Source: an uncultured Fuscovulum sp. (lineage in GTDB: Bacteria; Pseudomonadota; Alphaproteobacteria; Rhodobacterales; Rhodobacteraceae). Taken from it: 64,000 bases of DNA. Made by a program: the position numbers and the translations under genes. Every line of letters begins with the position of its first letter. Position 1 is the stretch's first letter. This document shows, in pieces, positions 23,788-52,663 of this stretch. The notes beneath the pieces are model-generated. The model did not search any database and was not told the DNA's origin. It was given only the letters and a program-made list of their open reading frames with translations. Location: positions 9,802-73,801 of the forward strand of contig CAYLSD010000019.1 of NCBI GenBank assembly GCA_964386345.1, in the 5' to 3' direction.

Positions 23788-23878
23788 TGGGGTCGGCCAT
23801 ACGGGCGTATGGGCCATACTGCCGTATGGACCCTGCGCCCGGATTGGCCCTACGCGCCGTCTATTATTGGCCATACGC
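23788..23878. repeat. Repeat family A: array of 17-bp palindromic units (consensus CCGTATGG-N-CCATACGG)
   Basis: Units at 23788, 23805, 23822, 23839 in exact 17-bp register plus an off-register unit at 23862. Confidence 0.8.
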
Positions 23879-23883
23879 GCCGC

Positions 23884-24798
23884 CTACTGCGGGGGCCGGA
23901 CCCGCCGCGCCAGATAGTCCCGGGTGAAGGCCGCATAGCCGTCCGCCGTCACCCGCAACTCGTCCCGCATCAGCGCATGGACCTCGGGCAGGCGGTGGAA
24001 GGGGACGGCGGGCCAGACGTGGTGCTCGACATGATAGGGCATGTTCCAGGCCAGGGCGCGGACGATCCGGTTGGTGAAGGTGGTCCGGGTGTTCTCGAAC
24101 ATGTTCGCCACCCGCGGGCAGTCGCCATGTTCCGCCAGCAGGTAAAGCCGCAGGAAGGGCTGGCCGAGCAGAACCGGCACCACCCAGACCCACAGCACGG
24201 CCGGCGACCAGACCAGGCTTGCCGCCAGCCCGGCGTAGACCAGCACCATCCCCCGCGCCTCCCGGACGATCCGGGCCTTGGCGCCTTCGGGCAGGTAGTC
24301 GCCCTCGGCCCGGCCGATGGAAAGCGCCGCCATCAGCCGCAGCGCGGCCCACCAATAAGGCAGGCCGGAAACATGCCAGACCCAGGCCGCCACGCCCTCG
24401 GGTTTTTCCGAGGCCAGTTCCGGGTCCTTTCCCGGCAGGTTGGTCCAGCGGTGATGCGCCAGGTGGAACCAGCGGAACCATTCGAAGGGCAGCACCAGCG
24501 CCAGCCCGCACAGCCGTCCGACCCGGTCGTTCAGCCGCTCGCTGGCAAAGGGGGTGCGATGGGTGCATTCATGCTCAAGCGTGAAGAGGAAGACGATCAG
24601 CACGCCCTGCACCGGCAGGAGCAATGCCCATCCCGGCACAGCCGCCGCGATCAGGCCGCCGCAGGCGAGGATCGCCCCGAGATGCCCGGCCAGATGGCGC
24701 AGGCCCGGGGCATCGAACCGCTCGATCATCCCGGCCCGCAACTCGGGCGGAAGGTTCGACAGAAACTCCCTGTGGTCCATGGGTGGTTCCTTCGGCAT
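23884..24798 (-). CDS. Membrane fatty-acid-desaturase-family di-iron protein (MocD-like)
   Basis: Three His boxes HECTH, HLAHH, HVEHH; alternative start 24780. Confidence 0.88.
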   Translation of the reverse strand: MPKEPPMDHREFLSNLPPELRAGMIERFDAPGLRHLAGHLGAILACGGLIAAAVPGWALLLPVQGVLIVFLFTLEHECTHRTPFASERLNDRVGRLCGLALVLPFEWFRWFHLAHHRWTNLPGKDPELASEKPEGVAAWVWHVSGLPYWWAALRLMAALSIGRAEGDYLPEGAKARIVREARGMVLVYAGLAASLVWSPAVLWVWVVPVLLGQPFLRLYLLAEHGDCPRVANMFENTRTTFTNRIVRALAWNMPYHVEHHVWPAVPFHRLPEVHALMRDELRVTADGYAAFTRDYLARRVRPPQ

Positions 24799-25170
24799 TG
24801 CTTCCCCTTCGGGTCTTGCCCCTCACTCCGGCATCGCCCTTCATTCGGCCTTGCTCTTCAAGGCATGATCGCGGCGTGTTCCGGTATCGCCCCGTTCCGG
24901 CCCGATGTCTTCTTCCGGTCAGCCGCCGCTCTCTTCCAGTTTCCAGCCAGGTGCTGCCCAGCCGACTCCGGGTTCGTCAGTTCTTGCCTTTCACGGCCCA
25001 TCCTGCATGGCTCGGGCCCTTGTCGGCCGCAAGTCGACCTGCTCCGGTCATGCCGATGATCGCCATGGCGCGACGCAAGGCAAGCCTGTTCGACATCGCC
25101 GGGCAACCGGGCGGTTCCGGTCTGCCTTGGGCTTCCCCGGAATGCGGGGCGCCTGATGGGTCGGACGAGT

Positions 25171-25216
25171 CCTGCCCCGTATGGGCCATACGGTAGAATG
25201 GCCCATACGGGGCAGG
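25171..25216. repeat. Repeat family A: perfect 19-bp-stem hairpin containing two 17-bp units
   Basis: CCTGCCCCGTATGGGCCAT-ACGGTAGA-ATGGCCCATACGGGGCAGG; units at 25177 (perfect) and 25194. Confidence 0.85.
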
Positions 25217-25636
25217 GTATTTCCGATTGCCAGGGGCCGCCTTGGTCCGCGCGAGACGGCTGCAAGCAGAATGGCCAATGGCGGCGCCATGGGGCCGACC
25301 GGCGCCCACACCGGACTCCGGTGCCGGGGATCGGCGCGCCCGTCCCTGCCTCCCGAAGGCATCGCTTCCAATCCTCTGACAGGCAGGGGCATATTGTGCG
25401 GCGGTCTCCATCGCCGAAGGCGCTTCCCCGGCCGGCAGCCTTCGCCCGTTCAGGGGAAGGTTCCGATATCCCAAGGCCGCCGATGAGTTGCGTTCGATAT
25501 CTGCCTTCCCCGTGGGTTTTGGTGGCCCAGGATGTTGAAAGGCAGGGGATCGGGCATGATGATCCTGCAAGCCGCTCCGATGGCTTCGGGGTGGGCTGCA
25601 AAATCATGCACCGCGTCGCAATATCCTGCCGTGCCC

Positions 25637-26173
25637 CTACAACCTGCGCACCGCCCCCGGCGCCAGCCCCTCAAGCGTCCAGTCGCCCACGCGCCAGCGG
25701 ATCAGCCGCAGGCAGGGCAGGCCGATGGCGGCGCACATCCGGCGCACCTGCCGGTTGCGGCCCTCGCGCAGGGTCAGTTCGATCCAGCCGTCGGGCACCG
25801 TCTTGCGCTCGCGCACCGGCGGGGTGCGGGGCCAGAGCCATACGGGCGTATCCACCATACGGGCGCCCGCTGGCAGGGTCGGGCCGTCCTTCAGCTCCAC
25901 CCCGCGGCGCAGGGCGGCAAGGGCGGTTTCCGTTATCGCCCCCTCGACCTGCGCCAGATAGACCTTCTCCAGCTTGTGCCGCGGATCGCTGATGCGGGCC
26001 TGCAACCGCCCGTCGTCGGTCAGCACCACCAGCCCCTCGGAATCCCGGTCGAGCCGCCCGGCGGGATAGACGCCCTTGTCGCGGACGAAATCCGCCAGCG
26101 TGGGCCGCCCCTCGGCGTCGGTGAACTGGCAGAGGACGTCATAGGGTTTGTTCAGGAGGATCAGCCGGGCCAT
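25637..26173 (-). CDS. rluE: rRNA large-subunit pseudouridine synthase E (RsuA family)
   Basis: [38 protein letters not shown]. Confidence 0.9.
25829..25862. repeat. Repeat family A doublet inside rluE
   Basis: GGGCCAGA-G-CCATACGG followed at +17 by GCGTATCC-A-CCATACGG. Confidence 0.6.
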
Positions 26174-26343
26174 GGGGCAGGGGTAGCGCATCGCGGCGCG
26201 GCTGGCCAGAACGGGTGTCGGATGCGCCCGGAGGCAGTTGGCTGGCAGAGGACAGCAAGCAACCGAACGGGACGCAGCCGAAGGAGATGGATACATGTGC
26301 GCAGCCGCTTGTCAGCACCCCGCGCCGCTGGCAGGGTCGCGCC

Positions 26344-27399
26344 ATGCAGATCGTCGTCATCGGCGCCGGGGTGATCGGCGCATCCATCGCCTTCCAGCTT
26401 GCCCGCCGCGGCCATGGCGTCACCATCCTCGACGGGCAGGGCATCGCCGCCGGGGCCTCGGGGCGCAGCTTCGGATGGATCAACGCCTCCTACTTCCTGA
26501 CCGAGGCGCATTACCGCCTGCGGCTGGAGGGCATCGCCGCTCACCGCCGCCTGTGCGGGATCCTGCCCGATTGCCCCACGAGCTGGCCCGGCTGCCTGTG
26601 GTTCGAGGAGACCGGCGCCGCGCAGGCCGCCTTCGCCGCGGACCTGCGCGCGCTTGGCTATCCGGTCGAAACATGGGACGGCGGCCGCATCAGGCGTGAT
26701 CTGCCGCAGCTTGGCGCCGCGCCCGAAAGCGCGCTGTTCCTGCCCGGCGAGGGCGCGGTCGATCCCGCGCTTCTCGCCGCCCGGCTGATCGCCGCCTCCG
26801 GCGCGCGGCTCTGGCGAGGCGTGGCGGCGGAAGGGCTCGTGCAGGCACAGGGCAGGGTGAGTGGCGTCCAGACCGCGCAAGGGGGGATTGCCGCCGATGC
26901 CGTGGTGGTGGCCGCCGGGACCGGCGCGCCCGCGCTGGTGGAGCCGCTGGGGATGACGCTGCCGATGCTGCCGCGCCCGGGGCTGATCCTGAAGACGCCG
27001 CCGCTGCCGCCGGTTCTGCCGCTGGTCCTCTGGGGGCCGGGGGGCGAGTTGCGGCAGGACGAGGCCGGGCGGCTGGTGATGCCGACGGCGGCCAACCATC
27101 AGGGCGATGCGGCGGAGACCGTCGCGGGCCTTGCCGGTGCCCATGCCGATGCCGCCATGGCGCGGCTGCGGGCGCTGCTGCCCGGGGTGCGGGCAGAGTG
27201 GGACGAGGTGGCGCTGGCCCATCGCCCGGTGCCGGGCGACGGCCTGCCGGTGATCGGGCAGGCGCGCCCCGGCCTCTGGCTGGCGGTGATGCATTCCGGT
27301 GCGACGCTGGCGGCGATCACCGGAGAACTGGTGGCGCAGGAGATGGAAGGGGCGGAGAGCGGGCTGCTCGCCGATTTCCGGCCCGGCCGGTTCGGCTGA
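26344..27399 (+). CDS. FAD-dependent oxidoreductase, DAO/DadA family
   Basis: IVVIGAGVIG, ASGRSFGWIN, RPVPGDGLPVIG, MHSGATLA. Confidence 0.9.
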   Translation: MQIVVIGAGVIGASIAFQLARRGHGVTILDGQGIAAGASGRSFGWINASYFLTEAHYRLRLEGIAAHRRLCGILPDCPTSWPGCLWFEETGAAQAAFAADLRALGYPVETWDGGRIRRDLPQLGAAPESALFLPGEGAVDPALLAARLIAASGARLWRGVAAEGLVQAQGRVSGVQTAQGGIAADAVVVAAGTGAPALVEPLGMTLPMLPRPGLILKTPPLPPVLPLVLWGPGGELRQDEAGRLVMPTAANHQGDAAETVAGLAGAHADAAMARLRALLPGVRAEWDEVALAHRPVPGDGLPVIGQARPGLWLAVMHSGATLAAITGELVAQEMEGAESGLLADFRPGRFG

Positions 27400-27482
27400 A
27401 CGGCGCTCGGCGGCAGAGAAGAAGACGGCCGCCTGCCACCCTGGCTTGCGCCCTCAGAATGCTCGGGGTATCTGTCGCTCAT

Positions 27483-27505
27483 GATATGTAATGATATAAC
27501 ATATC
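27483..27505. promoter_or_regulatory. Zur box upstream of zinT
   Basis: GATATGTAATGATATAACATATC, 23-bp near-palindrome resembling Zur consensus GAAATGTTATAwTATAACATTTC. Confidence 0.8.
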
Positions 27506-27541
27506 GAATCAATGCGGCGATACCTTGAAAGGAACTCCACC

Positions 27542-28204
27542 ATGCGACTGACGACACAAGGATGGACCGGCGCCCTGGCATTGGCTTCGGTGCTTGCCCT
27601 GGCCCTGCCGGCGGCGGCCCAGCAGGCGGCCGATGAGGGCCATGACCATGACCACTCCCATGCGGCGGACGACCAGGTCTACAATGGCTATTTCGACGAT
27701 GCCCAGATCGCGGCCCGCCCGCTTTCCGACTGGGAGGGCGACTGGCAGTCGGTCTATCCGCTTCTGCTCGACGGCACGCTGGACCCGGTGATGCAGCACA
27801 AGGCCGGGCATGGCGGCAAGAGCGCCGAGGAATATCGCGCCTATTACGACACCGGCTATCGCACCGATGTCGACCGGATCGAAATCCATGGCGACAGCGT
27901 CAGCTTCCATCGCGCGGCCGGTGTGGTGTCGGCGCACTATGCCGATGACGGGCATGAGGTGCTGACCTATGAAAAGGGCAATCGCGGCGTGCGCTACATC
28001 TTCCGCAAGGTCGAGGGCGACGCGGCGGCGCCCGGTTTCATCCAGTTCAGCGACCACGCCATCGCGCCGGTGAAGGCGGGGCATTATCACCTCTATTGGG
28101 GCGATGATCGCGCGGCGCTGCTGCAGGAGGTGACCAACTGGCCGACCTATTATCCCGCGGCGCTGACCCCGGCCGAAATCCTGTCGGAAATGCAGGCGCA
28201 TTGA
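27542..28204 (+). CDS. zinT: Periplasmic zinc-binding protein ZinT
   Basis: Signal peptide, His patch EGHDHDHSH, LSDWEGDWQSVY, YEKGNRGVRY, FSDH, HYHLYWG, NWPTYYP. Confidence 0.92.
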   Translation: MRLTTQGWTGALALASVLALALPAAAQQAADEGHDHDHSHAADDQVYNGYFDDAQIAARPLSDWEGDWQSVYPLLLDGTLDPVMQHKAGHGGKSAEEYRAYYDTGYRTDVDRIEIHGDSVSFHRAAGVVSAHYADDGHEVLTYEKGNRGVRYIFRKVEGDAAAPGFIQFSDHAIAPVKAGHYHLYWGDDRAALLQEVTNWPTYYPAALTPAEILSEMQAH

Positions 28205-28220
28205 TCTGCACCAGCCGAAA

Positions 28221-28244
28221 CGGGCGCCCTTCCGGGGGCGCCCG
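28221..28244. terminator. Probable bidirectional terminator (zinT/eno)
   Basis: CGGGCGCCC-TTCCGG-GGGCGCCCG, flanked by GAAA and TTTT. Confidence 0.65.
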
Positions 28245-28256
28245 CAGCGGTTTTCC

Positions 28257-30507
<2,251 letters not shown>

Positions 30508-30568
30508 GGCAGCCTCCAGCAGCCGGGATCGGGCAAGGCCCTACACCGGCCACCGGGGAAAGGGAACC

Positions 30569-31414
30569 TCAGCGGTAGATCTTCGGCGCGCCCGCCCGGT
30601 CGTGCAGCGCGTTCACCTCATGCGGTTGCAGTTCCAGCCCCTGCGCCAGCGCGTGCAGGTATTGCGCCTCTTCCTGCCGGTCGAGGTCTATCGCCGACAG
30701 CGAGGCCAGGTAGACCTGCGCCTCCATCCCGTTCGGCACCATCCGCACCAGCGCATCGACATCCACCGGGGCCGACAGTTCGGCATTCACCGCCTGCACC
30801 TCGGCCTGGGTGGCGTCGCCCATGGCCTCCATCAGCTTCTTCTTCTCGGCGGCATCCAGTTCCCCGTCGCATTTCACCGCCTGAATGATCGCCTTCAGCA
30901 TCAGCGCGGCGGAAATCTCGTCCTCCTCCTCGATCCGCAAGGAGCCGCCCGCAGGCCGCGCCGCGGAAGCGCCGAGGACGGAGCCGAGAAGATCGCCGAT
31001 CCCGCCCGCGTTCTGGCCGCCCCGGCCCGAGCGCGCGCCGGTCATCTGTTCCAGCACTGATTCCAGCCCGCCCTTTGGCGCGGTCTTGCGGCTGGTGGTG
31101 CGCTTCTGGCCCAGCACCTCTTCCAGCAGGTCGCCGCCGCGGCCGCTGCGGCTGGAGCGGGTGGCATTGCTGCCGGAATTGCCCAGCAGGTCGCCCATCA
31201 GATCGCCAAGCCCGCCGGATTGCCCCGCGGACCGGCCCGCCGGGCGCGTGCTTCCGGCCGAGCTGCCGCCGCCCAGCATCCCGCCGAGCACGTCGCCCAG
31301 ACCGCCGCCCGAGCCGGAAGCACCGCTTCCGCCCGCGCTCTTTGCGAGGGTCGAGACGCCCTTGGCCACCGCCACCCCGATCGCCACCTTCATCAATGTC
31401 TTTCCGAGACTCAT
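30569..31414 (-). CDS. DUF533 / TerB-like protein with Gly/Ser-rich N-terminus
   Basis: LMLKAIIQAVKCDGELD..E, QVYLASLSAIDLD...E..YL..LA. Confidence 0.8.
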   Translation of the reverse strand: MSLGKTLMKVAIGVAVAKGVSTLAKSAGGSGASGSGGGLGDVLGGMLGGGSSAGSTRPAGRSAGQSGGLGDLMGDLLGNSGSNATRSSRSGRGGDLLEEVLGQKRTTSRKTAPKGGLESVLEQMTGARSGRGGQNAGGIGDLLGSVLGASAARPAGGSLRIEEEDEISAALMLKAIIQAVKCDGELDAAEKKKLMEAMGDATQAEVQAVNAELSAPVDVDALVRMVPNGMEAQVYLASLSAIDLDRQEEAQYLHALAQGLELQPHEVNALHDRAGAPKIYR

Positions 31415-31528
31415 CGCAAGGGCCCTCCAGCCGGACAACAGGGACTAGAGCCTTGCTTGCGCTTCCGCCGCGGTCAATGCAAAACACCGTCCGGGGCAGG
31501 GGGAATTCCCGGGGGATCGCGTCACATC

Positions 31529-32413: not shown

Positions 32414-32539
32414 GGGCGCGAGAATCGGCTGATCGGCGGCGCAGGATTTGTCCCCCGCATCATCCGTTGCCTGAACCTGCGGCCCCAACCGCGCCGCTTT
32501 CTTGGCAAAAGGGCCGGAGTTCAGAAAACACTCCAACCC

Positions 32540-32548
32540 TTGTCCACA
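32540..32548 (+). promoter_or_regulatory. DnaA-box-like 9-mer upstream of nrdJ
   Basis: TTGTCCACA in the 465-bp nrdJ upstream region. Confidence 0.3.
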
Positions 32549-32705
32549 GGACCCTCCACAACCGGAAGGCGGAAAAGGTTACAAATCCGTGAACTGGGCG
32601 TGACGTGATGACGAAAGCGTCAAGACGGAAAATCCGCCGAAGAGGCAAAAAAAACCGTTGAACCGTCTTGGTGAATACGACAGGTTGACCGGGTGTTTCG
32701 GGCAG

Positions 32706-32721
32706 ACACTAAATCTAGTGT
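32706..32721. promoter_or_regulatory. NrdR box
   Basis: ACACTAAATCTAGTGT matches acaCwAtATaTwGtgt, about 160 bp upstream of nrdJ; weaker candidate CAAGAGATGG at 32744. Confidence 0.8.
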
Positions 32722-32878
32722 CGTCGGGCAGAGGCAGGACCCTCAAGAGATGGCAGCCGGCATCACGGCGCCGAACCCCTGTCGGCAGGCAGCCGGCGGG
32801 GCCGGGTTCCTGTGTTCCGTTCCGTCCGGCCGCATGCAGGACCATGCCGGGCTTCCGGCCAATGAAGGATCAGGGGCA

Positions 32879-39974: not shown

Positions 39975-40418
39975 ATGAAGAGCTCCGACAAACCCCCGCG
40001 CGACAAGACCGGGCGGATGACCCAGACCCTGCGCGACGGCGGCGTGCGGGTGACGCGGCAGCGCGAGGCGGTGTTGCGCGTTCTGGCCGAGGCCGCCGAC
40101 CATCCCGACGCGACCGAACTGCACCGCCGCGCCCGGGCAGTGGACGATTCCGTCTCCCTGGCCACCGTCTACCGCACGCTTTCGGTGCTTGAACGCGAGG
40201 GCGTGGTGCAGCGCCATTCCTTCGAGACCGGGGGCGCGCGGTTCGAGGTTGCCGACGAGGCGCATCACGACCATATCCTCGACGTCGATTCCGGCGAGAT
40301 CATCGAGTTCCGCAACGAGCGGATCGAGGAACTGCAACGCCAGATCGCCGCCGAGATGGGATACGAGATCGTCCATCACCGGCTGGAGCTTTATTGCCGC
40401 AAGACGGTCAGGGGGTAA
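39975..40418 (+). CDS. Fur/Mur-family transcriptional regulator
   Basis: TRQR, DHPDA, SLATVYRTL, AHHDH, HRLELY; no C-terminal CxxC; alternative start 40017. Confidence 0.88.
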   Translation: MKSSDKPPRDKTGRMTQTLRDGGVRVTRQREAVLRVLAEAADHPDATELHRRARAVDDSVSLATVYRTLSVLEREGVVQRHSFETGGARFEVADEAHHDHILDVDSGEIIEFRNERIEELQRQIAAEMGYEIVHHRLELYCRKTVRG

Positions 40419-43320: not shown

Positions 43321-43334
43321 GGAGAGGTATCGCC

Positions 43335-45386
43335 TCAGATGTCCTTCATCAGCCGCAGCGCATCGTAGATCGCCGCATGGGTGTTGCGCGATTCCACCGC
43401 GTCGCCGATCCGGTAGAGGCGGAAGCCCTTCGGCCCGTCGCCCGCGGGTTGCGGCCTGCCGTCGATCAGCGCGTCGTAATCCACCGCGCCGAGGTTCTCG
43501 GACAGCGGCTTCAGCGCGAAGTAGAGATCGGCATTCGGCGCGGTGCCGTGGTTCACCACGATCTGGTCGTAGTGCTTTTCCTGCGCCAGATCGGCGATGT
43601 AGTCCGATCCGATCACGGCCTTCAGCCGGTTGCCGTCGCGCGCCACCGAGGTCAGCCGGTAGGTGACGGTGAAGGTGACGGATTTCCCTTGCAGGCTGCG
43701 CATATAGGGGACGAGGTTCATCCCCATCACCTCGGGCGCGAAGCTGCGGTCGGGGGTCATCACCTCGACCGTGGCGCCCGCGGCGGCCAGCGCATCGGCG
43801 GTCTGCATCGCGGTATGGTCGCCCGCATCGTCGTAAAGCAGCACATTCGCCCCCGGCTTCACGTCGCCCGACAGGATGTCCCAGGCCTGCACGCAGAGAT
43901 CCTCGCCCGAAGCCAGCCCCACGGGCTGCGGCAACCCGCCGGTGGCGACGATCACCACATCTGGGGAAAGTGACGTTATGTCAGAGGTTTCCGCCCAAGT
44001 ATTGAAGTGAAATGTCACGCCCTTGGCCGTGCATTGCTCCATCCGCCAGTCGACGATGCCGATCATCTCGGACCGCCGCTTCTGCTGCGCGGTCAGCAGC
44101 ACCTGCCCCCCGGCGCGCGGCCCGGCCTCGAAGACCGTTACCCTGTGCCCGCGCTCGGCAGCGACCCGCGCGGCCTCAAGCCCCGCAGGACCGGCGCCGA
44201 CGATCACGACATTCTTCGGTGCCGCAGCGGCGGGAATGTCATGCGGCATCGTCTCTTCCCGCCCCGTCGCCGGGTTGTGGATGCACAGCGCCATGCCGCC
44301 CTGGTAGATCCGGTCGAGGCAATAGGTCGCGCCGACGCAGGGGCGGATGTCATGCTCGCGTCCCTCCACGATCTTGCGCACCACATGCGGGTCGGCCATA
44401 TGCGCCCGCGTCATCCCCACCATGTCGACCAGCCCCGCCGAGACGGCATGGCGCGCCGTCGCCACATCGGGGATGCGGGCGGCGTGGAAGGTGGGCAGGC
44501 CGACCTCGGCCCTGATCCGCCCGGCAAGGTCCAGATGCGGGGCCGATCGCATGCCCTGCACCGGGATCACATCGGTCAGCGCGGCATCGGTGTGGATGCG
44601 GCCGCGGATGATGTTGACGAAATCGACCAGTCCCGAATCCTTGAACCGCCGCGCCATCTCGACGCCCTCCTCGGCGGGGATACCGCCGGGGCTGTCCTCG
44701 TCGGCGGTGTAGCGCAGGCCCAGGAGGACCTTCGGCCCCACCCGCTCGCGGCAGGCTTGCAGCACCTCGAAGGCGAAGCGCAGGCGGTTGTCGAGGCTGC
44801 TTCCGTCATAGGGGCCGCCCTCCAGCGCATTGGTCAGCGGGCTGATGAACTGGTCCATCAGATGGCCGTAGCATTCGAATTCGACGCCATCGACACCCGC
44901 CGCCGCCATCCGTTCGGCGGCATCGGCATAGTCCTTGACGATGCGCGAGATGTCCCAGTCCTCGATCACCTTGGGGAAGGCGCGGTGGCTGGGTTCGCGG
45001 ACCGGGCCGGGGGCGACCACGGGCAGCCAGTCGCCCTTGTCCCAGCGGGTGCGGCGGCCAAGGTGGGAAAGCTGGATCATCACCGCCGCGCCCGCCTCGT
45101 GGCAGTCGTCGGTCAGCCGCTTCATCCAGGGCACGATCTCGTCCTTCCAGACCAGCAGGTTGGAAAATACCGGCGGGCTGTCGCGGCTGACCGATGCGGA
45201 ACCGGCCGTCATCACCATGGCCACCCCGGCCTTCGCACGCTCCAGATGGTAAAGCCGGTAGCGGTCCTTCGGCATCCCGTCCTCGCCATAGGCGGGTTCG
45301 TGGCTGGTGGTCATGATGCGGTTGCGCAGGGTCAGGTGATGCAGCTGGTAGGGTTGCAGCAGCGGATCGTTCGAGGGTCTGGACAT
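43335..45386 (-). CDS. stcD: NADH:flavin oxidoreductase, N-methylproline demethylase (StcD/HpbA)-like
   Basis: NDPLLQPYQL..LTLRNRI, HEPAY.EDGMPK, SRDSPPVF, LGRRTRWDKGDWLP, CVGATYCLDRIYQGG, RNTHAAIYDALRL. Confidence 0.82.
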   Translation of the reverse strand: MSRPSNDPLLQPYQLHHLTLRNRIMTTSHEPAYGEDGMPKDRYRLYHLERAKAGVAMVMTAGSASVSRDSPPVFSNLLVWKDEIVPWMKRLTDDCHEAGAAVMIQLSHLGRRTRWDKGDWLPVVAPGPVREPSHRAFPKVIEDWDISRIVKDYADAAERMAAAGVDGVEFECYGHLMDQFISPLTNALEGGPYDGSSLDNRLRFAFEVLQACRERVGPKVLLGLRYTADEDSPGGIPAEEGVEMARRFKDSGLVDFVNIIRGRIHTDAALTDVIPVQGMRSAPHLDLAGRIRAEVGLPTFHAARIPDVATARHAVSAGLVDMVGMTRAHMADPHVVRKIVEGREHDIRPCVGATYCLDRIYQGGMALCIHNPATGREETMPHDIPAAAAPKNVVIVGAGPAGLEAARVAAERGHRVTVFEAGPRAGGQVLLTAQQKRRSEMIGIVDWRMEQCTAKGVTFHFNTWAETSDITSLSPDVVIVATGGLPQPVGLASGEDLCVQAWDILSGDVKPGANVLLYDDAGDHTAMQTADALAAAGATVEVMTPDRSFAPEVMGMNLVPYMRSLQGKSVTFTVTYRLTSVARDGNRLKAVIGSDYIADLAQEKHYDQIVVNHGTAPNADLYFALKPLSENLGAVDYDALIDGRPQPAGDGPKGFRLYRIGDAVESRNTHAAIYDALRLMKDI

Positions 45387-45448
45387 GGCAAGCGGCCTTT
45401 TCACGGGTGGCTGGCGGCATCGTCGGGCAGGGCGCGGATTTCGTCAAA

Positions 45449-45478
45449 CACAAAATCGACACTGGTGTCGATTTTGTG
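45449..45478. promoter_or_regulatory. Candidate TetR operator in divergent stcD/tetR promoter
   Basis: CACAAAATCGACAC-TG-GTGTCGATTTTGTG, perfect 14-bp arms. Confidence 0.75.
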
Positions 45479-45523
45479 GGCTGTCTGGTTGCGGCGGGCG
45501 GGCAGGGGGCTTACCCTTGCCGC

Positions 45524-46162
45524 ATGGAAAGCACGGCGGAAGAGGCGGAGACGAAGGATCGCGGCTGGCGCGGCTCGGCCGCGCTGTGGCTGGACGGGGC
45601 CCATGCGCTGTTGATCGAAGGCGGCGTGGAGGCGGTGAAGATCGGCCCGCTGGCCGCCCGGCTCGGCCTGTCGCGGACCTCGTTCTACTGGCATTTCGCC
45701 GACCGCGAGGCGCTTCTGGCCGCGCTGGTCGCCCGCTGGCGCGAGACGAACACGCCCGCGCTGGTGGCACGGATCGACCGGCCCGCGGCGACGGTGACCG
45801 AGGCGGTTCTGGCGCTTTTCGACGCCTGGGTGGATGCGGACATGTTCGATTCGGCGGCGGAATTCGCCATGCGGACCTGGGCGCTGACCGATCCCGTGGT
45901 GGCCGCCGCGCTGGCCGGAGAGGATGAGGCGCGGATCGCCGCGCTGACCGGCCTTTTCCTGCGCCACGGCTATGCGGCGGATGAGGCGGACACCCGGGCG
46001 CGTACGGTCTATCTGACCCAGGTCGGCTATATCGCGCTGCGGTCGGAAGAGGATTTCGCGGCGCGGATGGCGCGGATCCCCTCCTATGCGCTGGTCTTCA
46101 CCGGGGTTGCCCCTTCGGCGGCGGAGGTGGCGGCCTTCCGGGCGCGCCACGCCCTTACGTAA
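45524..46162 (+). CDS. TetR/AcrR family regulator
   Basis: GGVEAVKI..LA.RLGLSRTSFYWHF helix-turn-helix. Confidence 0.9.
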   Translation: MESTAEEAETKDRGWRGSAALWLDGAHALLIEGGVEAVKIGPLAARLGLSRTSFYWHFADREALLAALVARWRETNTPALVARIDRPAATVTEAVLALFDAWVDADMFDSAAEFAMRTWALTDPVVAAALAGEDEARIAALTGLFLRHGYAADEADTRARTVYLTQVGYIALRSEEDFAARMARIPSYALVFTGVAPSAAEVAAFRARHALT

Positions 46163-46571
46163 GACGCGCCAGCAGCCGGGCCAGAAGCGCGGCCTCCGCC
46201 TCGTCCAGCGGTTCCAGCGTCAGGGCGCTGATCTCCAGCGCCAGCGGCGCCAGCCGGGCGAACAGCGCCCGGCCTTCGGGTGTCAGCGCCACGATCCGCC
46301 GGCGGCGGTCGGCCGGGTCCGGCGTGGCGGCGACAAGCCCCTGCCGCACCAGCCGGTCGACCACGCCCTTGACCGTGACCGCATCCATCGCGGTTTCCCG
46401 GCCGAGCGCGTTCTGCGACTGCGGCCCCAGTTCGGCCAGCCGGGCCAGCAGGGCGAATTGCGTGGTGGTCACGTCCGGGATGCCGCGGGCAAAGATCGCC
46501 AGATGCCGCTGCGTCACCCGGCGCAGCAGAAAGCCGATCTGCTCGTCCAGCACATAGCCCGTATGGTCCAT
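46155..46571 (-). CDS. MarR family regulator (NicR-like), divergent from the hydroxylase operon
   Basis: EQIGFLLRR..QRH, SQNALGRETAMD..TVKGVVDRL, DPADRRR...LTPEG. Confidence 0.9.
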   Translation of the reverse strand: MDHTGYVLDEQIGFLLRRVTQRHLAIFARGIPDVTTTQFALLARLAELGPQSQNALGRETAMDAVTVKGVVDRLVRQGLVAATPDPADRRRRIVALTPEGRALFARLAPLALEISALTLEPLDEAEAALLARLLARLT

Positions 46572-46592
46572 GCGCCCGAATAGACCCTACGC
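46559..46592. repeat. Repeat family A doublet overlapping the marR start codon
   Basis: CCGTATGG-T-CCATGCGC + CCGAATAG-A-CCCTACGC; 29/34 identical to 23822-23855. Confidence 0.7.
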
Positions 46593-46647
46593 TTTCCGTC
46601 CGCGCAAGGGACGGCTGTTGACAGCCGGGGCCGAGGCTTGGCACCTT

Positions 46648-46661
46648 GTTCGTATACGAAC
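46648..46661. promoter_or_regulatory. Candidate MarR operator
   Basis: Perfect palindrome GTTCGTATACGAAC 15 bp before the hydroxylase ATG; second palindrome GGCTGT-TG-ACAGCC (46613-46626) contains TTGACA. Confidence 0.6.
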
Positions 46662-46676
46662 GACAGGGCTAAGCGG

Positions 46677-47495
46677 ATGGATTACCTTCGCCCCGACAGC
46701 CTTTCCCAGGCGCTGGCCGCAGTTGCGGGCGGGGCGCGGGTGCTGGCGGGCGGGACGGATCTCTACCCCGGGGCGGGGCCGCGGCTGAAAGGGCCGGTGG
46801 TGGATCTTGCCGCCCTGCCGGGGATGGCGGGGATAAAGGCGGGGCCGGATGGCCTGCGGATCGGCGCCTGCACCACCTGGACCGCGATTGCCGAGGCAGA
46901 CCTGCCCCCCGCCGCGCGGGCGCTGCAACAGGCGGCGCTTCAGGTCGGCGGGCGGCAGGTGCAGAACGCGGGCACCATCGCCGGGAATATCTGCAACGCC
47001 TCGCCCGCCGCCGACGGCGTGCCGCCGCTTCTGGCCATAGGGGCCGGGGTGGAACTGGCCTCTGCCGCCGGGACGCGGCGGCTGGCGCTGGAGGATTTCC
47101 TGCAAGGCCCGCGCCGGGTGGAGCTACGGCCCGGCGAACTGGTCTCGGCGGTGCTGCTGCCGCGGGCGGGGCTGGCCGGGCGCTCGGCCTTCGCGAAACT
47201 GGGCGCGCGGGCGCATCTGGTGATCTCCATCGCCTCGGCCGCCGTGCGGCTGGAGGTCTCGGGCAGGCGGATCGAGGCGGCTGCGGTGGCGGTCGGCGCC
47301 TGCTCTCCGGTCCCGCGGCGGCTGCCTGCGGTGGAGGCGGCGCTTTGCGGCCCGATGCAGGGGGCCGCAGCCCGGGTCGATCCGGCGGCGGTGGCGGCGG
47401 CCCTGTCGCCCATCGGCGATGTGCGGGCGACGGCGGATTACCGGCTGCGGGCAGCGGCGGAACTGGTCCGCCGGGCGGTGGAGGACGCGCTGTGA
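46677..47495 (+). CDS. Molybdenum hydroxylase FAD subunit (XdhA/CoxM/NdhF-like)
   Basis: LAGGTDL, QVQNAGTIAGNICNASPAAD, DVRATADYR. Confidence 0.92.
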   Translation: MDYLRPDSLSQALAAVAGGARVLAGGTDLYPGAGPRLKGPVVDLAALPGMAGIKAGPDGLRIGACTTWTAIAEADLPPAARALQQAALQVGGRQVQNAGTIAGNICNASPAADGVPPLLAIGAGVELASAAGTRRLALEDFLQGPRRVELRPGELVSAVLLPRAGLAGRSAFAKLGARAHLVISIASAAVRLEVSGRRIEAAAVAVGACSPVPRRLPAVEAALCGPMQGAAARVDPAAVAAALSPIGDVRATADYRLRAAAELVRRAVEDAL

Positions 47496-50179
47496 TCCGG
47501 TTCCGGCTGAACGGCGAGGAGGTCGCGGCGGAGGCCCCGCCCACCGAACGGTTGAGCCTTACCCTTCGGGAAAGGCTGGGGAAAACCGGCACCAAGGTCG
47601 GCTGCGACGCGGGCGATTGCGGCGCCTGCACGGTGCTGGTGGACGGCTGGGCCACCTGCGCCTGCCTGACCCCGGCGGCGCGGGTCGAGGGCCGCGAGGT
47701 CACCACGGTTGAGGCGGAAACCCCCATCCTTGGCCGCCTGCGCGCCGCCTTCCTGGCCGAGGGCGCGGCGCAATGCGGCATCTGCACGCCGGGGATGCTG
47801 ATGGCGGCGGCCGAGCTTCTGGCGCATACACCCCGGCCGGACGAGGCCATGGTGCGGCAGGCCCTTGGGGGCGTCCTCTGCCGCTGCACCGGCTATGCGC
47901 GGATCGTCGCGGCGGTGGTCTCGGCGGGCCGGCCTGCGGCGGCGCATCCCGCCGCACCCGCCGCAGGGCAGGCGGTCGGCGCGGCCATGCCGCGGCTGGA
48001 CGGGGCGGCGAAGGTGGCGGGCGATCTGTTCGGCGACGATGTGGTGCCCCCCGGCGCGCTGGTGGTACGGGCCGTCCGCTCGCCGCATCCCCATGCCGCC
48101 TTCCGCTTCGGCGACCTGGCCGCCTATGCCGCCCGCCCGGGCGTGGCCGGGGTCTTCACCGCCGGGGACATTCCCGGCCGCAACGCCTTTTCCGTCATCC
48201 CGCCCTTCGCCGACCAGCCCGCCATCGCCACCTCTCCGGCCCGGTTCCGCGGCGAATGCGTGGCGCTGGTGGCGTTCGAGCCCGAGGCGGATTCCGGCCT
48301 GGCCGATTTCCCGGTGGACTGGCAGCCCTTGCCCGCGCTGGACAGCCCGGAGGCGGCCGAGGCCCCCGGCGCGGCGCTTGTCCACCCGGGCCGCCCCGGC
48401 AACCTGCTGATCGAGGGCAGGGTGAGGCGCGGCGACGTGGCGGCGGCGCTGGCCGCCTCGGCCCATGTGGTGGAGGGCAGCTTCACCACCGCCTTCGTCG
48501 AGCACGCCTATATCGAACCCGAGGCAGGCGCCGCATGGCTTGAGGGCGACAGGCTGGTCATCCGCGCCTGCACCCAGGCCCCCGGCATGGACCGCGAGGA
48601 AACCGCCGCGATCCTCGGCCTGCCGCTGGACAGGCTGCGCATCATCCCCTCTGCCGTCGGCGGCGGTTTCGGCTCGAAGCTGGATGTCTCCTTGCAGCCG
48701 CTGATCGGGCTGGTCGCCCTGCGCACAGGCCGCCCGGCGCGGATGACTTATTCGCGCCCCGAAAGCATGGCCTCCACCACCAAGCGCCACCCGGCCGGGA
48801 TGCAGGGCCGGATCGGTTGCGACGCCCGGGGCCGGATCACCGGCATGGAGTTCGAGGGCAGCTTCGACACCGGCGCCTATTCCAGCTGGGGCCCGACGGT
48901 GGCGAACCGGGTGCCGGTGCATGTCTCCGGCCCCTATCTGACGCCCGCGATCCATGCCCGGGCGCGGGCGGTGCACACCAACGGCCCGGTCTCCGGCGCC
49001 TTCCGCGGCTTCGGCGTGCCGCAGGCGGCGCTGTGGCAGGAAACGCTTTACGACCGGCTGGCGGAGAAGGCCGGGATCGACCGGCTGGAGTTCCGTATCC
49101 TGAACGCGCTGCGCGACGGGGATGTCTCGCCCACCGGCAACAGCCTGCAGGCGGTGGGGATCGCGCCGTGCCTTGAAGCGCTGCGGCCCGCATGGATGCG
49201 CGCGCTGGACTGGGCGGCTTCGGCCAGGGGCCGCGGCATCGGCGTCGCCTCCTGCTGGTATGGCTGCGGCAATACCGCCTTGCCCAACCCTTCCACCATC
49301 CGCATCGGCATCACCCGCGGGGGAGAGGCCGTATTGCATCAGGGCGCGACCGATATCGGGCAGGGATCGAACACCGTCATCCCGCAGATCGCCGCCGATG
49401 CCCTTGGCGTGCCGGTCCATGCCCTGCGGCTGGTCGGCCCCGACACGGCGCTGACGCCGGATGCGGGCAAGACCTCGGCCTCCCGCCAGACCTATGTCAC
49501 CGGCCGGGCGGCGCAGAAGGCGGCGGGCAGTTTGCGGGCGGCGATCCTGCGTATGGCCAATGCGGGCGAAGGGTCCATACTGGCACTGTCCCCGGGCCGG
49601 ATCACCGTGACCGAAGGGACCATACGGCGCGAGATCGAGCTTGAGGCGATGCCCCCCGACAGCCGCGGCTATGCGCTGTCGGCCGAGGAAAGCTACGACC
49701 CGCCGACCCGGCCGCTGGATGCCGACGGGCAGGGCGTGCCCTATGCCGTCTATGGCTACGGCGCGCAGATGGTGGAACTGGAGGTGGACCCGGCCCTCGG
49801 CACCGTCCGCCTGCACCGGATCACCGCGGCGCATGACCTCGGCCGGGTGATCAACCCGCTGCTCGCCCGCGGCCAGATCGAGGGCGGCATCGCCCAGGGA
49901 CTCGGCATGGCGCTGATGGAGGAATACCTGCCTGGCCGCACCGACAACCTGCACGACTACCTGATCCCGACCACCGGCGACATGCCGGCCATCGACCCGA
50001 TCCTGATCGAGGTGCCGGACCCCGAAGGCCCTTTCGGCGCCAAGGGCCTCGGCGAACACGTCCTGATCCCCACCGCCCCGGCGATCCTGAACGCCATCCG
50101 CCACGCTACCGGAGCCGCGATCACCCGCACCCCCGCGCTGCCCCACCGCATCCTCGCGGCGATGGAGGGCAGGGAATGA
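47492..50179 (+). CDS. Molybdenum hydroxylase, fused 2x[2Fe-2S] + molybdopterin subunit (nicotinate/xanthine dehydrogenase family)
   Basis: KVGCDAGDCGAC, QCGICTPG, LCRCTGY, VGGGFGSK, GAFRGFG, AKGLGE; GTGA overlap. Confidence 0.93.
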   Translation: MIRFRLNGEEVAAEAPPTERLSLTLRERLGKTGTKVGCDAGDCGACTVLVDGWATCACLTPAARVEGREVTTVEAETPILGRLRAAFLAEGAAQCGICTPGMLMAAAELLAHTPRPDEAMVRQALGGVLCRCTGYARIVAAVVSAGRPAAAHPAAPAAGQAVGAAMPRLDGAAKVAGDLFGDDVVPPGALVVRAVRSPHPHAAFRFGDLAAYAARPGVAGVFTAGDIPGRNAFSVIPPFADQPAIATSPARFRGECVALVAFEPEADSGLADFPVDWQPLPALDSPEAAEAPGAALVHPGRPGNLLIEGRVRRGDVAAALAASAHVVEGSFTTAFVEHAYIEPEAGAAWLEGDRLVIRACTQAPGMDREETAAILGLPLDRLRIIPSAVGGGFGSKLDVSLQPLIGLVALRTGRPARMTYSRPESMASTTKRHPAGMQGRIGCDARGRITGMEFEGSFDTGAYSSWGPTVANRVPVHVSGPYLTPAIHARARAVHTNGPVSGAFRGFGVPQAALWQETLYDRLAEKAGIDRLEFRILNALRDGDVSPTGNSLQAVGIAPCLEALRPAWMRALDWAASARGRGIGVASCWYGCGNTALPNPSTIRIGITRGGEAVLHQGATDIGQGSNTVIPQIAADALGVPVHALRLVGPDTALTPDAGKTSASRQTYVTGRAAQKAAGSLRAAILRMANAGEGSILALSPGRITVTEGTIRREIELEAMPPDSRGYALSAEESYDPPTRPLDADGQGVPYAVYGYGAQMVELEVDPALGTVRLHRITAAHDLGRVINPLLARGQIEGGIAQGLGMALMEEYLPGRTDNLHDYLIPTTGDMPAIDPILIEVPDPEGPFGAKGLGEHVLIPTAPAILNAIRHATGAAITRTPALPHRILAAMEGRE
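49549..49627. repeat. Repeat family A units inside the Mo subunit gene
   Basis: Units at 49549 and 49566 (17-bp register) and 49611 (CCGAAGGG-A-CCATACGG). Confidence 0.6.
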
Positions 50180-50190
50180 AAGGTTCTTTT

Positions 50191-50240
50191 CCCCTTCATC
50201 TTGGTCCAAATACTCCGGGGGCGCGGGGGCTGGCCCCCGC
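50191..50240 (+). repeat. Intergenic repeat family B, copy 2
   Basis: CCCCTTCATCTTGGTCCAAATACTCCGGGGGCGCGGGGGCTGGCCCCCGC. Confidence 0.8.
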
Positions 50241-50267
50241 TCCGACCTTGGCCGCAGGACTTGCCCC

Positions 50268-51704
50268 ATGACCGAAGCCCCCGAGAAGATCCGCTGCGAT
50301 GCCTGCCCGGTGATGTGCTACATCGCCCCCGGCCAGACCGGCGCCTGCGACCGTTATGCCAATGAGGCAGGCCGGATCGTGCGGACCGATCCGGTGGTGA
50401 TGCTGTCCCATGCCGTCGGGACCGGCGGGCGCGTGGTGCCCTTCGCGGCGCGGGATTGGGATGGCAGCCCGGTGCCCGCGGATGCTTTCGTCACCGGCAT
50501 CGGCGCGGGAACCACCTACCCGGACTACAAGCCCGCGCCCTTCATCGTGTCGTCCCGTATGGGCGATACGGACATGGTGACCGTGGTGACCGAGGCGATC
50601 TTTTCCTATTGCGGGGTGAAGGTGAAGATCGACACCGACCGCTTCCTCGGCCCCGAGGGGGCGGTGGTCCGGGTGACGGGCGAGGCCGTCGGCCATGTCA
50701 CCACCGCCGAATACGGCAGCCAGATGCTGTCCCTCGGCGGCGTCCATCACCTGACCGGCGGCTCGAAGGCCGGGGGCCGCGTCACCTGCGCCGCGCTGCT
50801 GAGCCTGTGCAACGGCGAGGCGGTGGAGATGGAGATCGAGGGCGGCTCGGCCGTGACCGTGCAGGCCGGACGGCCTCCGGTTGTGGATGGCGTGCAGGAG
50901 CGGCGGATGCGGGTCGGCTGCGGCTCGGCCACCATCGGCATGTTCGCGGTGCAATGGCAGGGGCTGGTGGACGAGGTGGTGGTGGTGGACGACCACATCA
51001 CCGGCGTCGTTTCGGAACATCAGGCCGGGAAGGTGCTGGACTGGCAGCCGACCGGGATCAGGATCAAGGGGCATCGGTCGACCCCGGGGCGGTATTTCCG
51101 GGTGTCGGAGCCCGGACAGGGCTGGGGCGGCACGCGGCTGACCGATCCGCTGGAGATCCTGGGCGACTGGCAGGAGAAGAAGGGGGCAAGGCCGGGGCTG
51201 CGGCTGCTGATGGTGTCCACCACCGGCGAGGAATACGCCTATTACGTGCTGGACCGGGACCTGCGCCCGGTGCCGCAGGAGTTGCCGCAGAACCTGAAGA
51301 AGACCGTGCAACTGATTGACGAGAATTGCGAACCCTCGCTTTGCACCGTGCTGTTCATGGGCGGGGCCGGGGGATCGCTGCGGGCGGGCGTCACCCGGAA
51401 TCCGGTGCGGTTGACAAGGTCCGTGCAGGGCGGCGTGACCCGGCTGACCTGCGGCGGGGCGGAAACCTTCGTCTGGCCCGGCGGCGGCATCACCTTCATG
51501 GTCGACGTGACCCGGCTGCCGAAGGGCGCCTTCGGTTATGTGCCGACGCCCGCGCTGGTGGCTCCGCTGGAATTCACCCTGCCGCGCGAGGATTATCTGG
51601 CGATGGGCGGGCATGAGGCGGCGGTCCGGGACATCGGGCAGGTGATGGAGGAAGGCGGGGAATACCCGACTGCCGCGAGGATCGAACCGTGGGGCGGGCG
51701 GTGA
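50268..51704 (+). CDS. hnr: 6-hydroxynicotinate reductase-like Fe-S flavoprotein
   Basis: RCDACPVMC...GACDRY, GAGTTYPDYKPAPFIVS, FSYCGVKVKIDTDR, MRVGCGSATIG, GGAGGSLRAGVT, WPGGGITFMVD; downstream of Mo-hydroxylase. Confidence 0.8.
   Translation: MTEAPEKIRCDACPVMCYIAPGQTGACDRYANEAGRIVRTDPVVMLSHAVGTGGRVVPFAARDWDGSPVPADAFVTGIGAGTTYPDYKPAPFIVSSRMGDTDMVTVVTEAIFSYCGVKVKIDTDRFLGPEGAVVRVTGEAVGHVTTAEYGSQMLSLGGVHHLTGGSKAGGRVTCAALLSLCNGEAVEMEIEGGSAVTVQAGRPPVVDGVQERRMRVGCGSATIGMFAVQWQGLVDEVVVVDDHITGVVSEHQAGKVLDWQPTGIRIKGHRSTPGRYFRVSEPGQGWGGTRLTDPLEILGDWQEKKGARPGLRLLMVSTTGEEYAYYVLDRDLRPVPQELPQNLKKTVQLIDENCEPSLCTVLFMGGAGGSLRAGVTRNPVRLTRSVQGGVTRLTCGGAETFVWPGGGITFMVDVTRLPKGAFGYVPTPALVAPLEFTLPREDYLAMGGHEAAVRDIGQVMEEGGEYPTAARIEPWGGR
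50555..50571. repeat. Repeat family A single unit inside hnr
   Basis: CCGTATGG-G-CGATACGG, 15/16 match to consensus. Confidence 0.6.
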
Positions 51705-51793
51705 GCGGCGCGTTCCATATCGCGCAGCCGCGCATCCGCGCGCGGCTGCAAGGGCCCGTCTCGCCTCTGGCCGTTCCGGCCAACCGGCTCGGG

Positions 51794-51830
51794 GCCTCCG
51801 GCGGGGATATTGGCGGTTCTGGAAGAGGGG
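51794..51830 (-). repeat. Intergenic repeat family B, degenerate copy 3
   Basis: GCCTCCGGCGGGGATATTGGCGGTTCTGGAAGAGGGG resembles the reverse complement of copy 1; preceded by a 10-bp-stem hairpin at 51724-51749. Confidence 0.45.
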
Positions 51831-51832
51831 CG

Positions 51833-52663
51833 GTGGCGGCGCTTTTGCCGGACGGGCGGCTGCATCTGCAACACGGGCCGATCGACATAGTCGCGGAAGC
51901 CTGGGGAGAGGCCGTGGCCGTCCGCGAAGGATATGCCCGGGCGGCGGGGCGCTTCGCTTCCGTGCTTCAGGAACTGGCGGCGGAACTGCCTGCGTTGCGG
52001 GCTGAGGATGCGCCCTTGCGGGGAGCCATCGCGCAACGGATGGCCGCTGCCGTGGCCCCGTTCCGGCCCGCCTTCATCACGCCCATGGCCGCCGTGGCGG
52101 GTGCGGTGGCGGAGGAGGTGCTGGCGGCGCTGGTCGGGCCGGGGATCGCCCGCGCCTGTGTCAACAACGGCGGCGACATCGCGCTGTTCCTTGCGCCGGG
52201 GCAGCGGCTGTCCTGCGCGCTGGCGGCCTCGGGCGGTATGGACCATACCACCGTATGGGCCGAGGCGCCGGTGCGCGGCATCGCCACCTCGGGCTGGCGG
52301 GGGCGCAGTTTCTCTTTCGGTGTCGCCGATGCGGTCACGGTGCTGGCGCGGACCGCGGCGATGGCGGATGCGGCGGCGACGATGGTGGCGAATGCGGTGG
52401 ATCTGCCCGGCCACCCGGGCATCCGCCGGCGCCCGGCCTGCGAGATGCAGGCGGATACCGATCTGGGCGCGCGGCTGGTGACGGTGGCGGTTCCCGCTCT
52501 TTCGCCGGAAGACCGCGGCGCAGCGCTGGCGGCGGGGCTGGCGGCGGCCGAGGGCTTCCGGGCGCGCGGATTGATTGAAGCTGCCGCGATTTACCTGCAA
52601 GGTGAGCGGCGGGTGACCGGGGGCCTTGCCCTTTCCGCGCCGGCAAGGGGAGAAGATGACTGA
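51833..52663 (+). CDS. UPF0280 family protein (ApbE-like fold)
   Basis: LPDGRLHLQHGPID, FITPMAAVAGAVA, NNGGDIA, GIATSGWRGRSFS.GVADAVTV; start GTG 51833 (RBS) or 51701. Confidence 0.85.
   Translation: MAALLPDGRLHLQHGPIDIVAEAWGEAVAVREGYARAAGRFASVLQELAAELPALRAEDAPLRGAIAQRMAAAVAPFRPAFITPMAAVAGAVAEEVLAALVGPGIARACVNNGGDIALFLAPGQRLSCALAASGGMDHTTVWAEAPVRGIATSGWRGRSFSFGVADAVTVLARTAAMADAAATMVANAVDLPGHPGIRRRPACEMQADTDLGARLVTVAVPALSPEDRGAALAAGLAAAEGFRARGLIEAAAIYLQGERRVTGGLALSAPARGEDD
52234..52267. repeat. Repeat family A doublet inside the UPF0280 gene
   Basis: CGGTATGG-A-CCATACCA then at +17 CCGTATGG-G-CCGAGGCG. Confidence 0.6.

Follow-up and report, generated by a model that had tools for sequence, protein, structure and literature searches.

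A clade-restricted 17-bp palindrome in arrays and genes of Fuscovulum, with a short TetR-family protein as its candidate binder

A 64,000-nt stretch of the genome of an uncultured Fuscovulum sp. (genome G000, contig C19, positions 9802–73801; hereafter, the window) carries a 17-bp palindrome that recurs, in part as contiguous head-to-tail arrays, in two islands. The palindrome is enriched and clustered there and is constrained at the DNA level. Within the genus, it co-occurs with a gene for a clade-specific, short TetR-type protein, and an array lies in the intergenic spacer of that gene itself. We tentatively favor the view that the units are DNA-level binding sites, with this protein as the most likely binder.

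A local excess of a 17-bp palindrome

The assembly that contains the window comprises 4.44 Mb in 116 contigs, with a G+C content of 67%. The core of the motif is the octamer CCATACGG/CCGTATGG, and the complete element is an odd-centered 8-1-8 palindrome, CCGTATGG-N-CCATACGG, with the 17-mer consensus CCGTATGGNCCATACGG. The window contains 11 exact copies of the octamer, all within 23797–25862 or 46559–52258, versus a mean of 1.28 and a maximum of 6 in dinucleotide shuffles. The 17-mer, with up to 3 mismatches allowed, occurs 10 times versus 0.35 expected, and neither observed count was equaled in any of 100 shuffles. Tandem Repeats Finder reported a 17-bp period at 23795–23860 and a 23-bp repeat at 23843–23886. 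The preliminary description of this DNA had placed an excess of the palindrome in two islands and had listed its units as exact 17-bp-period arrays; the excess and the array are borne out, but the listed units are uneven in quality. Those at 25177 (0 mismatches to the consensus), 50555 (1), 23805, 46559 and 49611 (2 each) are good matches, and seven others are weak, with 4 mismatches (23839, 46576 and 49566), 5 mismatches (23788, 23862 and 52251) or 6 mismatches (25829).

At least five of the units in the window lie in open reading frames (ORFs). When the codons of nine genes of both islands were shuffled synonymously, 0.31 in-ORF matches with up to 3 mismatches were expected versus 5 observed, a number that none of 3000 codon-preserving shuffles reached; at up to 2 mismatches, 2 were observed versus 0.03 expected. 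The earlier claim that the signal in ORFs resides in the DNA therefore withstood the codon-preserving control. Comparison of orthologues points the same way. A 24-nt sequence, CGTATGGTGGATACGCCCGTATGG, in the RluA-family pseudouridine synthase gene of the first island is identical in four species (genomes G000, G001, G033 and G016, ~80–87% genome identity), and the residues M, D, T and V that it encodes are replaced freely in ~20 other species. Because the nucleotides are identical while the encoded residues vary elsewhere, the constraint on CGTATGGTGGATACGCCCGTATGG, judged from these alignments, is on the nucleic acid and not on the protein.

When the scan was extended to the whole genome, the concentration in the window stood and a general excess in ORFs did not. 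There are only 69 octamers in the 4.44 Mb, and five of the nine 17-mers with up to 2 mismatches fall inside the window, whereas in-ORF 17-mers show no excess genome-wide (19 observed versus 23.5 expected in 2743 ORFs). Outside the window, the octamer has an observed-to-expected ratio of about 1, and genome-wide it is not over-represented relative to its sub-words. Because neither measure shows an excess, the excess is local and the two islands are real; a genome-wide drive in G000 is ruled out by the same two results. Eight loci of G000 have at least three ATACG/CGTAT pentamers within 25 bp of each other, versus 0–1 in Markov simulations, and three of the eight fall in the first island.

We give next to no credence to the possibility that the motif is a product of chance or composition, with its consensus picked post hoc. 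Such a reading would accommodate the weakness of several listed units and the genome-wide octamer ratio of 1.0 relative to sub-words, but it does not account for the shuffle controls, none of which matched the observed counts, or for the arrays that the motif forms at orthologous loci of no fewer than 10 other species. Three independent metagenome runs carry an identical array sequence. Because these runs agree and related species have arrays at corresponding places, the arrays are not an assembly artefact.

Distribution in the genus and a candidate binder beside surE

We compared G000 with its relatives in a set of 26 genomes of the genus, among which G003 is its closest relative, by counting 17-mers with up to 2 mismatches per genome against a reversed-pattern control. 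Matches versus control were 16/0 in G033, 9/0 in G000, 6/0 in G003 and in G017, 4/0 in G008 and 3/0 in G005, the other genomes being at background. In 300 other genera of the family, the maximum was 6 matches and the typical number 0–2. Import from a motif-rich donor is ruled out, since none of these genera exceeds 6. The 17-mer family is real and restricted to one clade of the genus. An array upstream of surE was found in at least 10 species; the half-site CCATACG is retained there, and the rest of the spacer is unalignable. Orthologous arrays differ in unit number between species.

Transcribed divergently to surE is the gene for a short TetR-family protein of 124–150 amino acids; the G003 version, with 124, is encoded at C7:31068–31439. 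The protein matches Pfam TetR_N, its helix-turn-helix is homologous to TetR-family chains in the PDB, and TKGSFYWHF is its recognition helix. At this length, it would lack most of the ligand-binding domain usual in the family. Orthologues (E ≤ 1e-28) are present in exactly 12 of the 26 genomes, always beside surE. No true orthologue was found in the 300 other genera, where distant homologues have no motif nearby. An array occupies the TetR–surE spacer in 11 of the 12 genomes with the gene and in none of the 14 without it (Fisher test, 1.6e-6). Summed 17-mer matches versus control are 58 versus 6 in the former and 20 versus 21 in the latter (Fisher test, 2.6e-6); both co-occurrence statistics ignore phylogeny. 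The scan of related genomes that the preliminary description had suggested shows arrays at orthologous places and an excess in the TetR-bearing genomes.

Other features of the gene's surroundings also involve the motif. In G005 and G017, the TetR-like gene is flanked by dusA, which has an in-ORF G-M-D-H-T unit, and by an ORF with an R-M-G-D-T-D double unit, so that the dusA–TetR–surE region makes up a third island, which encloses the regulator gene. The first unit (ATGGACC) of the spacer array and a conserved GTTAAC are 17 bp apart; the two could be the −35/−10 pair of the promoter from which the regulator is transcribed. Another array (C55:1520–1580) is located 1.6 kb from a paralogue (C55:3226–3849) that has an identical recognition helix. 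In G000, the TetR-like gene is outside the window, on contig C105 from position 4052 to the contig end, which falls inside the gene. Upstream of dusA, where relatives have the TetR-like gene, G000 has a short ORF (C24:45502–45747) with an atypically low G+C content at third codon positions (GC3). The end of C105 inside the TetR gene together with this low-GC3 ORF points to an inserted segment or a rearrangement that separates the TetR gene from dusA in G000.

We hypothesize that the palindrome is a cis-element recognized at the DNA level by a sequence-specific dimeric protein, for which the TetR-like protein is our candidate. One dimer would occupy each 17-bp unit, and head-to-tail arrays in spacers would load several dimers side by side, in the manner of multi-dimer TetR operators, and would thereby repress or insulate neighboring promoters. 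Both the stoichiometry and the regulatory outcome, like the assignment of the binder, are what we infer from sequence. Candidate targets would be the regulator's own gene and surE-pcm, the EamA exporter, the desaturase and, in G000 and G003, the region of marR and the N-heterocycle operon. Additional single or double sites would be written into nearby coding sequence at the cheapest place, in the frame R-M-x-H/D-T. An odd-centered 8-1-8 palindrome is the architecture of tetO-type operators. Copies lie upstream of the exporter and the desaturase, and others cover the start codons of marR (in G000 and G003) and of the DAO gene (in G017); such positions are typical of repressors. Binding arrays for a dimeric protein were also what the preliminary description had proposed; this proposal is the one we favor, and it is partly supported by the 24-nt identity, the retention of CCATACG and the co-occurrence with the TetR gene.

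Several observations weigh against this operator reading. The 12 TetR-bearing genomes probably form one clade, and the co-occurrence is then not phylogenetically independent. In G000 itself, the TetR–surE spacer has only weak units (3–5 mismatches), and G001 has the TetR-like gene and no array in that spacer. Half-site spacing is not fixed in the wider family, which includes head-to-head pairs with 2-nt or 4-nt centers, and a 17-bp period sets successive dimers on different faces of the helix. The first array of the window is hypervariable in close strains and varies in unit number, a behavior that resembles a tandem repeat more than an operator under constraint. Among TetR-family members the protein is unusually short, there is no clear functional theme among neighboring genes, and the restriction of the in-ORF excess in G000 to islands is unexpected for a simple regulon.

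The TetR-family gene of the window itself (within 45407–46162, +) is unlikely to encode the binder, as it has a different recognition helix and a palindrome of its own at 45449–45478. That palindrome is perfect, with 13-bp arms (CACAAAATCGACA-CTGG-TGTCGATTTTGTG), is located in the divergent spacer between this gene and an OYE-like flavoprotein gene (43335–45404, −) and is probably the operator of the adjacent TetR-family regulator. In the TetR–surE spacer of G001, an AAAATCG-type palindrome similar to 45449–45478 replaces the 17-mer array.

Arrays, hairpin and in-gene sites of the two islands

The features of the two islands are collected in Table 1.

Table 1. Coordinates of the palindromic units and associated features in the window
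Feature	Position	Strand	Remarks
EamA-family transporter gene	22758–23651	−	downstream of array 1; possible target
Array 1	23788–23886	.	intergenic; 4–5 head-to-tail 17-bp units (23788, 23805, 23822, 23839) and a 23-bp repeat pair (23843–23886)
Fatty-acid desaturase gene	23884–24798	−	between array 1 and the hairpin
Perfect hairpin or cruciform	25171–25216	.	19-bp arms, 8-nt loop; inverted repeat 100% complementary
RluA-family pseudouridine synthase gene	25637–26296	−	carries an in-ORF double unit
In-ORF double unit, RluA-family gene	25829–25862	−	encodes A-R-M-V-D-T-P-V-W
marR	46155–46571	−	start codon inside a 17-bp unit
Two units over the marR start	46559–46592	−	cover the start codon (ATG GAC CAT ACG) and 21 bp upstream
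Element CTGTTGACAG	46615–46624	.	conserved together with TTGTTCGTATACGAACGA in orthologous marR/operon spacers
Palindrome TTGTTCGTATACGAACGA	46646–46663	.	outside the 17-mer family; conserved in the marR/operon spacer of all 15 orthologues
In-ORF double unit, Mo-hydroxylase gene	49549–49585	+	encodes L-R-M-A-N-A-G-E-G-S-I-L
In-ORF single unit, Mo-hydroxylase gene	49611–49627	+	2 mismatches; also in G003
In-ORF single unit, Hnr-like gene	50555–50571	+	1 mismatch; encodes R-M-G-D-T
In-ORF one-and-a-half units, UPF0280 gene	52234–52267	+	encodes G-M-D-H-T-T-V-W

In the first island, array 1 starts where the desaturase gene ends, at its stop codon, and is 137–235 bp upstream of the EamA start. An array in this spacer is present in G000, G003 and G001. 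A close strain (run X5, ~98% identical) lacks one 23-bp repeat unit of array 1 and has 6 substitutions and 3 inserted bases within 23788–23805; its contigs break on either side of the hairpin. The hairpin is made of the exact unit at 25177 and a 3-mismatch unit at 25194, and its folding energy is −48.6 kcal/mol (z = −9.3). It is placed in an 857-bp non-coding spacer (24799–25636) between the RluA-family and desaturase genes, in which there is no coding signal (GC1 = GC2 = GC3, about 0.66) and no similarity to the equivalent spacer of G003 (675 bp) or G001 (~300 bp). The spacer is unusually long for G000. Between the RluA-family gene and EamA, G033 and G017 lack the desaturase gene and have a small cupin-like (DUF985-type) gene in its place; the desaturase locus is a variable cassette site with the motif at its bounds (23884–24798 versus G033:C2).

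The position and rapid turnover of these arrays raise another possibility, less probable in our view than operators and still to be taken seriously, namely that the units are a low-copy family of repetitive extragenic palindromes (REP) or bacterial interspersed mosaic elements (BIME) without REP-associated tyrosine transposases (RAYT). Such short palindromes in transcribed spacers would have no dedicated binding protein, would grow and shrink by slippage of 17 or 23 bp and would occasionally spread by short-patch gene conversion onto similar sequence nearby; any role would be that of RNA hairpins (3′-end protection or termination) or of cruciforms. The start of array 1 at a stop codon is as expected for such a family, as are the perfect hairpin, a terminator-like hairpin that follows an array in G033, the greater similarity of units within an array than of units elsewhere, the changes of array 1 in the close strain and the variation of unit number between species in the corresponding spacer. 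In addition, gene length is unchanged where in-ORF copies occur, and these copies repeat deviations peculiar to array 1 (32 of 36 positions agree at 49549–49585), which fits conversion from the array.

A related family with the form ATACG-N4-CGTAT, for example ATACGGGGGCGTAT, takes up the spacer immediately past the stop codons of an mmsB-like gene, sufS and tsf (C47:21138–21179, C61:15393–15430 and C66:10924–10953) and was counted among the points in favor of REP-like repeats. It has 12 copies genome-wide at the exact spacing versus ~0.3 at other spacings and may be a REP-like parent or sister of the 17-mer family.

Other results do not agree with REP-like repeats. No Y1 transposase (PF01797), the hallmark looked for as RAYT, was found in any of the 26 genomes of the genus, control genomes being positive, and there are about 8 loci with at least three core pentamers per genome, whereas REP families have tens to hundreds. 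In 85 units of G000 and its relatives, 8 compensatory double changes were observed versus 12.6 expected from shuffled halves; the missing compensatory changes therefore argue against selection for a hairpin. Unlike the single hairpin, the arrays fold only marginally better than shuffles (z about −2). Copies are present in divergent promoter spacers (TetR–surE and marR) and over start codons, which is unusual for REPs, the in-ORF units of the window depart from strictly extragenic placement, and one in-ORF copy is letter-identical in four species. For the GTAG foot of REPs the picture is mixed: some units read GCGTAGGG on the minus strand (23839 and 46576), but the consensus has GTAT. Rfam covariance models gave no match with E ≤ 1 in 22000–53000, and the literature on the motif and on Rhodobacteraceae REP elements yielded nothing relevant; neither source gave a described family that matches. 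A REPIN/RAYT system in the strict sense is ruled out by the missing transposase, the mere ~8–10 loci per genome and the lack of compensatory changes. Of the REP/REPIN-like alternative named in the preliminary description, the placement after stop codons and the fast unit turnover thus survive, and the transposase, the copy number and the covariation do not.

The second island comprises, in order, marR, the gene for an FAD-binding subunit, the Mo-hydroxylase gene with two sites, and the Hnr-like and UPF0280 genes with one site each. Its units resemble those of array 1: 46559–46592 equals 23822–23855 at 29 of 34 positions, and 49549–49585 matches the opposite strand of 23820–23855 at 32 of 36 (89%). 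Mo-hydroxylase orthologues are of the same length, and the likeness to array 1 arose through substitutions that include the rare codons CGT and ATA. The unit at 50555 lies in a five-residue patch that is variable in all orthologues; it is missing in G003, and in a close strain a synonymous C>G change at 50564 weakens it. At the UPF0280 site, the orthologous sequence of G003 matches the consensus better than that of G000.

In-ORF units generally preserve gene length and occupy residue patches that are variable among orthologues. They are nearly always in one frame, C|CGT|ATG|GNC|CAT or GAT|ACG|G, which encodes R-M-x-H/D-T. Substitutions directed toward the motif were not counted as evidence, as the sites had been chosen for matching it (ascertainment bias). 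Paralogy as the source of the identical CGTATGGGCGATACGGA in two ORFs was ruled out, the proteins being unrelated. On contig C140 of G033, four in-ORF sites with up to 2 mismatches were found versus 0.64 expected, and G000 and G017 share, letter for letter, a 33-nt in-ORF copy on C24 whose flanks are only ~80% identical, a further sign of constraint on the DNA.

The double unit over the marR start codon and the four sites in the divergent operon could suggest that the units are distributed operators of the local MarR, as the preliminary description had considered. The comparison within the genus contradicts this, and we regard it as refuted. MarR and the operon are present in 15 of the 26 genomes, and in all 15 the marR spacer conserves a different palindrome; TTGTTCGTATACGAACGA and CTGTTGACAG, judging by this conservation, are likely the true MarR operator and promoter. 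The 17-mer occurs at the marR start in only 2 of the 15 orthologous spacers, those of G000 and G003. In G017, marR and the Hnr-like gene have in-frame stop codons (G017:C4:125170–130688), yet arrays with 1 mismatch are kept, and G033, with the most sites of all, has none near its operon. Because both genes carry in-frame stops, the N-heterocycle operon is decaying in G017. Whichever reading of the 17-mer sites holds, their annotation as MarR operators of the N-heterocycle catabolic operon should be avoided.

Genes for a ZinT-like zinc-recruitment protein and a Fur-family regulator (27512–28204 and 39975–40418) adjoin a MacB-type ABC system between the islands. The group may be a Zur-controlled zinc module, unconnected to the motif.

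Relation to known systems and implications

The clustering of sites inside genes admits a different role for the same protein and motif, which we consider unlikely: chromosome structuring, as with SlmA and its binding sites (SBS) or with parS and matS clusters, or marking of DNA for packaging by a gene transfer agent or for uptake. The site clusters, many of them in ORFs, would then nucleate a nucleoprotein domain. The tight, species-specific in-ORF islands (46.5–52.3 kb in G000; C140 in G033), the island that surrounds the gene of the candidate binder in G005 and G017, the presence of only tens of sites per genome and a candidate binder that would lack most of the usual ligand-binding domain would suit such a role. 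Against it, the contiguous 17-bp arrays are unlike the layouts of SBS, matS and parS, the excess in G000 is limited to a few loci, and canonical parS is found elsewhere, on contig C7. A fuller version of this idea has, in our estimate, only a small chance of being right: a young pair confined to the clade, in which a miniature TetR-fold protein goes with a 17-bp palindrome now being introduced into coding sequence, in islands that differ between species and include one around the protein's own gene, would form no ordinary regulon, but an SlmA- or parS-like chromosome-marking or domain-forming system, or a packaging or uptake mark early in its spread.

Two related classes were rejected outright. 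A parS/ParB centromere is excluded, in agreement with the preliminary description, as the unit sequence is unrelated to TGTTNCACGTGAAACA and canonical parS sites are located at C7:28690 and C7:34009. Plasmid iterons or a plasmid centromere were excluded because the neighbors are housekeeping genes and no match was found in 72,556 plasmids.

Among known systems, TetR operators (tetO, and the multi-dimer operators of QacR and EthR) share with the units an odd-centered palindrome of 15–19 bp in the spacer between the regulator and a divergent gene, further copies before a transporter gene and a lipid-modifying enzyme gene, and the possibility of adjacent or overlapping occupancy by several dimers. 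The system described here differs in that as many as five units adjoin one another at an exact 17-bp period, copies occur inside coding sequences, array length changes rapidly and the candidate regulator has 124–150 rather than the typical ~190–220 amino acids.

REP/BIME elements with RAYT in enterobacteria and pseudomonads are similar in being short, imperfect palindromes of alternating orientation in spacers, often after stop codons, with a lineage-specific consensus, and in persisting at orthologous spacers with variable copy number. The differences are the absence of RAYT from the genus, ~8–10 loci instead of hundreds, no stem covariation, and copies in ORFs, in divergent promoters and over start codons.

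SlmA–SBS of Escherichia coli nucleoid occlusion, parS and matS have in common with the 17-mer family tens of palindromic sites per genome, many in genes and chromosomally clustered, and SlmA demonstrates that a TetR-fold protein can play a nucleoid-occlusion-type role. The sequences are unrelated, however, the arrays here are tandem and contiguous, and canonical parS exists elsewhere in G000. HIP1 of cyanobacteria and the uptake sequences USS/DUS are likewise DNA-level motifs fitted into ORFs by codon and residue choice in a preferred frame, with inverted pairs after genes; they number hundreds to thousands of copies, whereas the present motif has only tens, gathered in islands, and shows no excess over the G000 genome as a whole.

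Both leading readings, operators of the TetR-like protein and REP-like repeats, are of known kinds; what is unusual is the combination of contiguous 17-bp arrays, the recruitment of units in frame into genes, in islands that differ between species, and a candidate binder with a miniature TetR fold. If the units are RAYT-less REP-like repeats, they would indicate that repeats of this kind can be maintained in few copies and can enter genes in frame, which is interesting but modest. If the TetR-like protein binds the units, the 26 close genomes, 12 with the pair and 14 without it, would offer a rare view of the birth of a regulator–operator pair, in which new sites can be seen to arise in promoters, at start codons and within genes by codon changes that can be identified, and would document operator arrays of contiguous 17-bp units and a TetR-fold protein of unusually small size.

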